Of a stretch of 64,000 nucleotides of DNA, positions 24,361 to 26,521 are shown in pieces. Below the pieces are notes generated by a model. That model had not been told where the DNA came from. It searched no databases and worked only from the letters and a program-made list of their open reading frames with translations. Every line of letters starts with the position of its first letter. Position 1 is the stretch's first letter. A program made the position numbers and the translations under genes. Origin of the DNA: Candidatus Dormiibacterota bacterium (GTDB lineage Bacteria > Chloroflexota > Dormibacteria > Aeolococcales > Aeolococcaceae). The stretch is from the NCBI GenBank assembly GCA_963709585.1, contig CAVPXI010000014.1, positions 288,001 through 352,000 of the forward strand, written 5' to 3'.

Positions 24361-24573
24361 CTACTCGTTCTCGTACTTGAACGAGACGTTGAGGCGGGTG
24401 CGGAACCGCGCGACCTTGCCGTTCTCGACGGTCAGATCGAGCTTGACCACCTCGGCGATGCGCAGGTCGCGCAACGATGAGGATGCGGTCTCGATGGCGA
24501 TCTGGGCTGCCTTCTCCCAGGACTCGGCGCTGGTCCCGACGAGCTCGGTGACGCGGTAGACGCTCTCAGCCAT
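24361..24573 (-). CDS. Dodecin family protein
   Basis: MAESVYRVTELVGTS.ESWE.A...VSFKY, 70 aa. Confidence 0.9.
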   Translation of the reverse strand: MAESVYRVTELVGTSAESWEKAAQIAIETASSSLRDLRIAEVVKLDLTVENGKVARFRTRLNVSFKYENE

Positions 24574-24678
24574 GCAGGTACCCCCTGGACAATGGACGCA
24601 GGAGCGCCATTCTGACCGCCGAGGCGCGCGACCGGTCGCGCGGTACAAGTGACCTAGACATCCCACGGGGATAAGTCG

Positions 24679-25893
24679 TCAAGCAGCAGCCTGACGGATG
24701 GGTGGCCAGGCCACGCGTTCGGAGTAGCAGCAGCGATGTTCGAGACAGCCGTGGAGGATGCCGACGAGACGGTTGGCGAGGGCACGCAGCGCCTGATGGT
24801 GGGTGTGGCCGCGGGCACGATGAGCCGCGTAATAGGCACGTGCGCCCGCTGAATGCGTCAGGGTGCAGAAGGCCCACAGGTAGAGCGCATCGGCGAGACG
24901 GCGGTTGCGCGTCACACGCGCCAGGACCACCGACCGAGTGCCTGAGGCACGAGTGATCGGAGCGCTGCCGGCATAGCAGCGTCGCGCTCTGGCATTCTCA
25001 TAGCGGGTCCGGTCGTCACCGAACTCCGCCAAGACCCGGGCGCCGAGGATCACACCAAGTCCGGGCAGACTGCGCAGGATCTCGGCGTCCGGGTGATCTT
25101 CAAAAGCCTCGGCAAGCTCGGCCTCGAGGGTGGCGATCTGCGCATTGAACTCGCTGATCACGCGCACCATGGCCAGCACCGAGCTGCCATACGCCCTGGC
25201 GAGCAGCGGCGGCGGCGCCAGTTGCGGCGCACGCAGTGCGCGTTGCAAGGCCGCAGCGCGGGGGGCGATCCCGCGACGGCGCCCGCTACGCGCCAGCACC
25301 ACCCGGAGCTGGTTGAGAGTCAGCCGCCGTCCTTGCTCGGGCGTGGGTGCTCGGCTGAGCAACGCCAGTGCGTCCCGACCGGCCAACTCCGTGCCCAGCG
25401 CGTCCAGTGCAGCGGGATAGAACTCCCGCAGCGCGCTGCGCAGCTGATTGGCATGCCGGACGCGCGCCCACACCAACGTCTGATGGGTGCGGGCGAGCAC
25501 TTTCAGACTCTCCGCGAGCTCGCTGTCGCCCGCCATCGGGCGATGGTTCTGGCGATCGGTGCGGACCAACTCGGCCAACACCTTGGCGTCGCCCGGATCC
25601 GACTTCGCCCGCGACACGGTATGGCGATCGCGGTAGCGACTCACCGCGAACGGATTCAGGGCATACACCTGATACCCGGTGGCCACCAACCCTTGCACCA
25701 GCAGACCGCGGTCGGTTTCGATGCCAACCACCACGGTCTCGGGTTTCGAGGTGTGCGCCCCGACCAGCTCATGGATGCGTGCCAGGCCTTCGATCCCATC
25801 GGGGACGCGCGCCTTGTCGAGACGGGCTCCTGCCTCGTCAAGGAGACACACGTCGTGGTGCGCCTCCGCCCAATCGATGCCGAGGTAGACCAT
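24679..25893 (-). CDS. IS110 family transposase/recombinase
   Basis: YLGIDW, GIET and KSDPGDA (DEDD RuvC-like); SLPGLG; YAGSAPITRASG (serine wedge). Confidence 0.96.
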   Translation of the reverse strand: MVYLGIDWAEAHHDVCLLDEAGARLDKARVPDGIEGLARIHELVGAHTSKPETVVVGIETDRGLLVQGLVATGYQVYALNPFAVSRYRDRHTVSRAKSDPGDAKVLAELVRTDRQNHRPMAGDSELAESLKVLARTHQTLVWARVRHANQLRSALREFYPAALDALGTELAGRDALALLSRAPTPEQGRRLTLNQLRVVLARSGRRRGIAPRAAALQRALRAPQLAPPPLLARAYGSSVLAMVRVISEFNAQIATLEAELAEAFEDHPDAEILRSLPGLGVILGARVLAEFGDDRTRYENARARRCYAGSAPITRASGTRSVVLARVTRNRRLADALYLWAFCTLTHSAGARAYYAAHRARGHTHHQALRALANRLVGILHGCLEHRCCYSERVAWPPIRQAAA

Positions 25894-25929
25894 GTGGCGC
25901 TCCTCCTGTGTGAACGCGACAACGAGCCG

Positions 25930-26110
25930 GAGGAGCATCGCGGCGCCCTAATGGATCAGTGCTCGGGGCACGACATCCCACCGGCCGTCTTGTCTCCTCG
26001 CCAACCGTCGGGGCCACGGTCTAGGCCTGGAGCTCAGCGCTCTGAGTCGAAGAGTGGTCACCCGCCGGCGGCTCGGGAGCAGCTTGCTCCTCAGCCGAGC
26101 TGCTCGCCAC
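25930..26110 (-). ncRNA. Putative IS110 bridge RNA (boundaries approximate)
   Basis: 5' hairpin at 26077-26105; target-guide matches at 26051-55 and 26021-25; donor-guide matches at 25972-81 and 25948-54. Confidence 0.8.
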
Positions 26111-26128
26111 CCATTAGAGTCTGGAGCC

Positions 26129-26521
26129 ATGCGAACGCTCATACGAACCGTCGGCCGCCTCTGCATCTCCGGGATCTTCGTTTACTCCGGCTACGGGATG
26201 ATCAAGAATTCGGAGCGCTACGCAAAGCTGGCGGCGGCTGCGCTGCCGGTGCCCGAGGACCCGATGATCGCCAGAGCCCAGGGCGCGACCATGATGGTGG
26301 CCGGTTCCACCCTCGCCCTCGGCATCCTGCCGAAAACGTCTGCCCGACTCCTCGCGCTCACATTGATCCCCAACACATTCGTCGGCCATCCGTTCTGGAA
26401 AGCCCAGAAACCCGAGGATCGGCGCAGTCAGCTCGTCCACTTCCTGAAGAACGCGGGGCTCTTCGGTGGCCTGCTCTATGTGGGCGCGGACAAGCGGACC
26501 GAGCCCCGTCTCGAGGACTGA
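26129..26521 (+). CDS. DoxX family membrane protein
   Basis: GRL..SGIF, HPFW and HFLKN.GL.GG motifs. Confidence 0.85.
   Translation: MRTLIRTVGRLCISGIFVYSGYGMIKNSERYAKLAAAALPVPEDPMIARAQGATMMVAGSTLALGILPKTSARLLALTLIPNTFVGHPFWKAQKPEDRRSQLVHFLKNAGLFGGLLYVGADKRTEPRLED

Follow-up and report, generated by a model that had tools for sequence, protein, structure and literature searches.

Organization of the locus

A 1,458 bp insertion sequence of the IS110 group is located on the minus strand of the window (the whole 64,000 nt stretch of DNA that was analyzed), between a dodecin gene (24364-24573, minus strand) and a gene for a DoxX protein (26129-26518, plus strand). It consists of a recombinase gene with a non-coding left end of 222 nt and a non-coding right end of 21 nt, and has no terminal inverted repeats. 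On the minus strand the left junction reads ..CCAGACT-CT and is followed by the element start AATGGG at 26115, while at the right junction the element end ..GTGGGATGT at 24658 is followed by CT-AGGTC. All sequence strings quoted in the initial annotation were found on the minus strand at the positions given there. The features of the element are listed in Table 1.

Table 1. Features of the IS110-group element and of its insertion site, ordered from the left to the right flank
Feature	Position in the window	Strand	Evidence
Left target flank GACT	26118..26121	-	Common to 3/3 insertion sites
Left CT core dinucleotide	26116..26117	-	Sequence read and 3 copies; single CT in empty site
Whole IS110-group element, 1,458 bp, CT cores excluded	24658..26115	-	Same junctions in 3 genomic copies; empty sites in relatives
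Structured core of predicted bridge RNA (5' stem-loop, target-binding loop, donor-binding loop)	25942..26105	-	RNAalifold, 65 sequences; pair counts
5' stem-loop (GAGCAGCT / AGCTGCTC)	26077..26105	-	7 of 8 pairs tested, 7/7 change on both sides (compensatory)
Target-loop basal stem, 5' strand	26054..26076	-	19 pairs, 11 compensatory
Left target guide GACT + core-binding C (corrected position)	26044..26048	-	Homologous columns match left flanks of relatives; all 3 sites here
Target-loop distal hairpin GAGC, loop GCTGA, GCTC	26030..26042	-	4/4 pairs compensatory, 2-24 sequences each; also in MFE fold
Right target guide GGCCT + core-binding AG	26021..26027	-	Reverse complement matches right flank +1 to +5
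Predicted target-loop handshake AC	26019..26020	-	Position from IS621 (PMC11208158, available part); complementary to the last two bases of the right end, GT
Target-loop basal stem, 3' strand	25996..26017	-	Pair counts in the same 65-sequence alignment
Left donor guide GTGGGATGT + core-binding C (= GTGGGATGTC)	25972..25981	-	Identical to right end + C
Donor-loop distal hairpin GTGC, loop CCCGA, GCAC	25959..25971	-	4 pairs; 98.5% paired cells, largely invariant, one compensatory pair
Right donor guide CCATT + core-binding AG	25948..25954	-	Reverse complement of CT+AATGG
Predicted donor-loop handshake GG	25946..25947	-	Can pair with the last two left-target bases C, T (G-C, G-T)
Possible hairpin sequestering the ribosome-binding site, GCTCCTCC (25936-29) with GGAGGAGC (25906-25899)	25899..25936	-	MFE fold
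Recombinase gene, 404 aa + stop	24679..25893	-	Pfam, NCBIfam and profile matches; conserved D7, E59, D99, D102, S317-G318
TTGACG, -35-like hexamer in right end, holds recombinase stop TGA	24677..24682	-	Right-end tails of relatives
Right CT core dinucleotide	24656..24657	-	Sequence read and 3 copies; single CT in empty site
Right target flank AGG	24653..24655	-	Common to 3/3 insertion sites

Genomic copies and empty sites

The host genome (3.52 Mb in 24 contigs, 88.8% complete, 66.8% GC) contains three copies of the element, which are 99.9% identical and have 1-2 differing positions each. The ORFs are intact in all of them, with one missense change per copy, in agreement with the earlier description of an intact element from a high-GC lineage. 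All three copies have identical junctions and are flanked by GACTCT and CTAGG; their flank sequences are otherwise unrelated.

The empty site was searched for with the DoxX-side flank in 40 relatives, and the flank was matched in 24 of 24 same-genus genomes. In six of the nine loci retrieved from relatives, the dodecin gene lies 81-118 nt from the flank without an intervening element; in the remaining three (L089, L091 and L093) there was no adjacent dodecin match. Five of six same-genus relatives contain the empty site GACTCTAGG once between the DoxX and dodecin genes, in the context ..AAGACT-CT-AGG.. with one CT, and the sixth, L088, reads GACTTTAGG at this locus. The core dinucleotide CT is thus present once in the empty sites of relatives and on both sides of the element in the three copies. 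The boundaries and the empty target had originally been deduced from the window, and it had been proposed to check the site on other genomic copies, with different boundaries in an empty-site allele named beforehand as a possible refutation. All three copies sit in GACT-CT-AGG, and the single-CT sites of relatives agree with the deduced boundaries.

The insertion point is the 81-nt divergent DoxX-dodecin intergenic region. The element sits past the GGAG that precedes DoxX, at a distance of ~11 nt upstream of its start codon (window 26116-26135), and probably cuts DoxX off from its own promoter. Another copy, L003 (contig C7), is located ~17 nt from an opposite-strand start codon. It has an extra A at element position 68-69, within the left target guide (TTCGAACTC vs TTCGACTC), and therefore the RNA of L003 itself would mismatch GACT at position -4, despite its GACTCTAGG site.

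Unoccupied GACTCTAGG was not found in the 3.52-Mb assembly, where all three instances are split by an element. This is unremarkable, because about 0.6 sites are expected by a maximal-order estimate; the assembly contains six ACTCTAGG and two GACTCTAG sites, while CTAG occurs 1219 times. The 14-mer of the circle junction was absent from the assembly. Similarly, the contigs of four DNA runs contained neither the circle junction nor a join of 24656/7 to 26116/7, although contigs cannot show rare circles. Contigs of the element from these runs end at 24653 and 26121, where the repeated sequence has its edges, as would be the case if the repeat had collapsed in assembly. Two weak joints in the contigs, 24574 to 26115 and 24574 to 26169 (with sides of 20-30 nt), are uninterpretable.

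The recombinase

The protein encoded by the element contains both domains of the family, DEDD_Tnp_IS110 (PF01548, 1e-37) and the C-terminal Transposase_20 (PF02371, 2.9e-15) with its serine. It scored 204 bits with the NCBIfam model NF033542 'IS110 family RNA-guided transposase' (cut-off 140). Since a phmmer search of the recombinase against PDB sequences gave no match, a profile of 26 relatives was used, which matched the transposases of ISCro4 (9t56, 3e-15) and IS621 (8wt6, 1.1e-14) over both domains. Residues D7, E59, D99, D102 and S317-G318 are invariant across the 26 relatives. In the profile alignment D7, D99, D102 and S317-G318 fall on D11, D102, D105 and S241-G242 of IS621, whose catalytic roles are described in the available part of PMC11208158. 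The invariant E59 is two columns off the aligned E60 of IS621, and is presumably its equivalent.

It should be mentioned that the Rfam family RF02464 (Ms_AS-4, an actinobacterial antisense sRNA family) matched the plus strand at 24988-25069 with 54.8 bits (gathering score 50). The match lies in antisense orientation opposite the part of the recombinase gene that codes for the conserved LPGLG..FGDD, and conservation of the coding sequence, not an actual sRNA, may account for it.

The element has recently been active. The three copies could also be relics of a past burst of a bridge-RNA element that is no longer mobile in this host, and both the lack of an unoccupied GACTCTAGG or a circle junction and the extra A in the guide of L003 would suit such a history. 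We consider it improbable, however, given 99.9% identical copies with intact ORFs and a single missense change each, and a complete set of catalytic residues; moreover, contigs do not detect rare circles and the genome is only 88.8% complete.

A predicted conserved two-loop RNA in the left end

To reveal the structure of the left end we used 80 loci of 515 confirmed relatives. The nearest among the loci listed (83-94% protein identity) belong to MAGs labelled Dormibacterota, and the other listed loci (~57-66% identity) mostly to Acidimicrobiia and other Actinomycetota. Loci with too short an upstream sequence (L010 and L045) and with non-canonical or misaligned left ends (L034, L054, L065 and L075) were left out. 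After removal of duplicates the alignment comprised 65 distinct sequences, on which the RNAalifold structure and the 5' stem-loop were tested.

Common to the left ends are a 5' stem-loop and, 3' of it, two internal loops that both have a basal stem and a distal hairpin (Table 1). Over 41 tested pairs, 93.4% of cells were paired, vs 31-47% when the partners were slid. Changes on both sides were revealed in 25 of the 41 pairs vs 15.3 +/- 1.7 in shuffles, and none of 500 shuffles reached this number. In addition to the helices shown in Table 1, the donor-loop basal stem has three pairs, two of them compensatory. The guide segments are located on the two strands of the internal loops between the helices. 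Thus, folding and alignment of homologous ends, proposed earlier as a check of the layout, gave covarying stems and placed the guides on internal-loop strands.

Two details of the earlier layout had to be shifted, the left target guide (see below) and the distal hairpin of the target loop: instead of CTCAG/CTGAG, both the family and the MFE fold support GAGC/GCTC, with strands at 26042-39 and 26033-30 of the minus strand. The corresponding GTGC/GCAC strands of the donor loop are at 25971-68 and 25962-59. A further helix in the RNAalifold structure joins GGAT, within the left donor guide, to ATCC adjacent to the right one (96.5% paired, 0/4 compensatory). With such pairing the donor 'loop' of the free RNA might be partly closed.

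The single-sequence MFE fold of the left end was no better than shuffles (z -0.97). A search of 24400-26400 with Rfam 15 at permissive thresholds revealed no bridge-RNA family, and the Ms_AS-4 match was the sole one above its gathering score.

Donor guides match the ends of the element

Both strands of the second loop correspond to the ends of the element itself, with 10 of 10 and 7 of 7 matching bases within the window. These matches are also found in relatives. For the A/G variant of the left donor guide, guide and right-end DNA are concordant in 57 of 59 loci. The guide variant CTATTAG goes together with CTAATAG left ends in three classes, the common type comprises 24 classes, and L022 is the only exception. 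The donor guides GTGGGATGTC and CCATTAG therefore stand where they were originally placed, and their variants track the element ends.

To estimate the role of chance, 5000 dinucleotide shuffles of the 222-nt left end were analyzed. The GTGGGATGTC 10-mer was found in 0.0002 of them and CCATTAG in 0.0026, compared with 0.11 for CCTAG, 0.15 for ACTCT and 0.37 for GACTC. Since only the donor matches beat chance within one window, the target guides were tested comparatively.

Two observations concern the donor loop in other sequences. The left end of L075 (1200-1300) lacks its own first 6 nt, in place of which it has the 3' part of another copy's donor loop (..CCATTAGGAAGCTGCTGGG joined to left-end position 7), possibly as a product of nested or aberrant recombination. 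In soil metagenomes the summed depth of the contigs peaks over the donor-binding loop, at 25928-26001 (e.g., 261 vs ~6-10 in run X5), where many short contigs continue into unlike sequence, as expected if many different soil elements share the donor loop.

Target guides covary with the insertion sites

For the comparative test, the homologous columns of the target loop were compared with two 12-nt flank segments, one preceding CT-AATGG and the other following the right-end CT. In total we analyzed 75 loci with 60 distinct target loops; the left flank was available for 60 classes and the right flank for 45. At left-flank positions -1 to -6 the observed match was 0.89, 0.82, 0.86, 0.77, 0.57 and 0.52, vs 0.50, 0.28, 0.32, 0.29, 0.28 and 0.25 in permuted data. 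At right-flank positions +1 to +5 it was 1.00, 0.96, 0.83, 0.89 and 0.69, vs 0.73, 0.43, 0.30, 0.42 and 0.32, and it fell to the null level at +6 to +8. On summation, left-flank matches reached 5.15, where the null was 2.42 with a maximum of 3.12; right-flank matches reached 5.14, with a null of 3.00 and a maximum of 3.49. None of 2000 permutations was as high in either case. The two strands of the first loop thus covary with the target, one corresponding to its left half (bottom strand) and the other to its right half (top strand).

The left target guide lies directly 5' of the distal hairpin, and its conserved terminal C reads the first core base. At the three sites of the host genome GACT and AGG match in every case, and positions +4 and +5 match or are G-T-capable at two of them. 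This gives 4+1 matching guide bases on the left and 3-5+2 on the right, small numbers that, taken alone, are within chance. Among relatives, the four nearest (L004-L007, with 83-94% protein identity) have different loops that match their own different flanks (e.g., 6/6 and 7/8 bases of the right flank). This is a case of natural retargeting.

The right target guide CCTAG at 26025-21, as initially proposed, was borne out by flank matching across relatives. The left one had been assigned to ACTCT at 26055-26051, in a loop closed by CTCAG/CTGAG; the homologous guide proved to be GACTC at 26048-26044, 7 nt further 3'. ACTCT was rejected as a candidate, since its ACT is identical in 60 of 60 classes and matches the own flank no better than permuted flanks (0.25, 0.38 and 0.14 vs 0.25, 0.38 and 0.13). 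ACT is invariant because it is part of a conserved stem motif, GGTGAGCACT. It is true that ACTCT coincides with the last three left-flank bases plus CT at all three copies, that the CTCAG/CTGAG pairing is possible in the window sequence, and that the left guide of IS621 spans both core bases (PMC11208160, available part). Nevertheless, A55 and C54 are paired in the basal stem of the target loop, the covarying GAGC/GCTC hairpin occupies the other register, and ACTCT arises readily in shuffles; we therefore regard this exact layout as very unlikely.

Least probable of all is that the protein itself chooses the site (e.g., by a CTAG-containing motif) and the left end serves only as a leader for recombinase expression: CT+AG is indeed common to most sites of the family, even the null match at +1 amounts to 0.73 and the left end has a 3' part able to sequester the ribosome-binding site, but loops and flanks agree by identity or complementarity over ~11 variable positions in 60 different loops, a predicted handshake base covaries with the flank, and L004-L007 fit their own different flanks with closely similar proteins.

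The target and donor loops of a guide RNA, which we prefer, are further supported by one of the predicted handshake bases. In IS621 the two bases 3' of each right guide are handshake guides, as described in the available part of PMC11208158. The dinucleotides predicted by homology at 26020-19 and 25947-46 were absent from the initial annotation. The first donor-loop handshake base forms a Watson-Crick pair with left-target position -1 at a frequency of 0.84 (null 0.53; 0/2000 permutations), and the second base gives a weak signal of 0.41 (null 0.25; 3/2000 permutations). In the target loop the first handshake position is occupied by A, and the last position of the right end by T, in each of the 59 loci for which the right end was mapped; both being invariant, they are uninformative for covariation.

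Possible expression signals

The right ends contain a conserved -35-like motif. All 53 distinct right-end tails analyzed have TTGAC at a distance of 18-19 nt from the core, and in 46 of 53 distinct right ends the stop codon TGA of the recombinase gene is inside TTGAC(G/A). TTGACG may have a promoter role. The best -10 across the joined ends is TCTAAT, with a spacing of 17-18 nt and without the usual A at position 2. A simple scan of the integrated element for promoters and terminators gave 0 and 0. According to the available parts of two reports, excision rebuilds a promoter across the core (PMC11208160) and integrated copies express bridge RNA weakly (PMC13626964). The conserved TTGAC and the lack of promoter matches in the integrated copy would, by analogy, fit this picture.

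Downstream of the donor loop, GCTCCTCC can pair with GGAGGAGC, the ribosome-binding site just before the recombinase start (Table 1). Comparable duplexes beat shuffles (p<=0.05) in 21 of 65 relatives; for the one in the window p=0.095.

Proposed mode of action

The data presented above point to an intact IS110-group insertion sequence, the left end of which encodes an IS621-type two-loop bridge RNA; we assign this reading a probability of about 90%. The same layout with a CT core had been recognized initially, and is now supported by the protein family, the covarying loops and the matches of guides with flanks and element ends. From the homology with IS621 we infer transcription of the left end, the RNA ends, a circular intermediate, RNA-protein binding and activity today.

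It can be hypothesized that the left end is transcribed into a bridge RNA composed of the 5' stem-loop, a loop for target binding and one for donor binding. The target loop would carry the guides GACT+C and GGCCT+AG with the handshake AC, and the donor loop the guides GTGGGATGT+C and CCATT+AG with the handshake GG (positions in Table 1). Dimers of the DEDD/Ser recombinase would bind both RNA loops, as in IS621. The donor loop would then pair with both strands of the joined ends ..GTGGGATGT-CT-AATGG.. in the circle, and the target loop with the genomic site GACT-CT-AGG(CC). The serine would cut beside the CT core; strand exchange would be aided by handshake pairing and followed by resolution of the Holliday junction, so that the circular element would be inserted with CT left on both sides.

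The element was initially considered possibly reprogrammable, and the finding of 60 different target loops on a near-constant donor loop speaks in favor of this suggestion.

Significance

The element contributes one more well-documented natural bridge recombinase, originating from an uncultured soil lineage with high GC. It leaves the known mechanism unchanged. The rules established for IS621 hold at roughly 60% protein divergence and in other phyla, with departures that include shorter guides and half-core left guides. The ~60 natural retargetings of one scaffold represent a free mutational scan of the specificity-carrying positions of the loop. Tool builders obtain a distant orthologue in which both the guides and the target have been mapped, with proof from the empty site.

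A near-invariant donor loop and near-invariant element ends are common to at least 60 target loops in MAGs of Dormibacterota, Acidimicrobiia and other Actinomycetota; therefore, the RNA-protein complex of any member might mobilise the circle of another. It may be tentatively proposed, though we think it rather doubtful, that the clade is a naturally modular and more compact bridge system, characterized by cross-mobilisation, a target code of ~11-13 bp, half-core left guides and doubly gated expression. If so, the -35 element with the stop codon would meet its -10 only in the circle, while the hairpin would hide the ribosome-binding site.

Comparison with known systems

The closest described system is IS621 of Escherichia coli, a bridge recombinase with a 177-nt bridge RNA (Durrant et al. 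2024, PMC11208160, and Hiraizumi et al. 2024, PMC11208158, here and below in their available parts). In each element the encoded protein combines a RuvC-like DEDD domain with a Ser-Gly-containing Tnp domain; the left end is long, the right end is short, and the core is CT. In both, the RNA of the left end comprises a 5' stem-loop, then a target loop, then a donor loop; the left guides read as the top strand and the right guides as the reverse complement including the core. A variable target loop combined with a conserved donor loop is also shared; the handshake bases after the right guides and the -35 element in the right end of IS621 have predicted counterparts here.

At the same time, several differences were revealed. 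The protein described here has 404 aa vs 326-328 in IS621, and was found by profile only. Of the core, the left guides of the present element read the first base alone (C, followed by A or G and not by T). The target guides are shorter, with covariation extending over ~6 bases on the left and 5 on the right (4 and 3-5 matching at the sites of this genome), whereas the left guide of IS621 has nine bases including the core. The basal stem of the target loop has ~19 pairs, the stop codon is inside the -35-like hexamer, and the host is a soil bacterium with 66.8% GC.

Among solved structures, the ISCro4 transposase (PDB 9t56) was the best profile match (E 3e-15, two stretches covering both domains); the relationship is distant, and the comparison with ISCro4 concerns the protein only. 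Elements of the IS1111 group and seekRNA elements of the IS110 family share the recombinase family and the RNA-guided choice of target and donor (PMC11208160 for the group; PMC13604230, available part, for the name seekRNA). In these elements, however, the RNA is located in the long right end and there are sub-terminal inverted repeats of 7-17 bp, whereas here the left end of 222 nt contains the RNA and the right end has 21 nt. The element does not fall into the IS1111 group because its structured RNA is upstream of the gene and its long end is on the left.

The donor-loop strings of the clade gave only one chance match, to a synthetic oligo, in the searchable parts of the supplements of PMC11208160. 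Among the matches listed for literature pairing bridge RNA with Dormibacterota or Acidimicrobiia, the clade was not mentioned. Judged by its sequence, the element has the defining features of the IS110 group in its protein domains, ends and core, RNA fold and guides. Bridge RNAs have been predicted in 85.7% of IS110-group elements (PMC11208160), and being common in this group, they make the element described here a further case of a known system.
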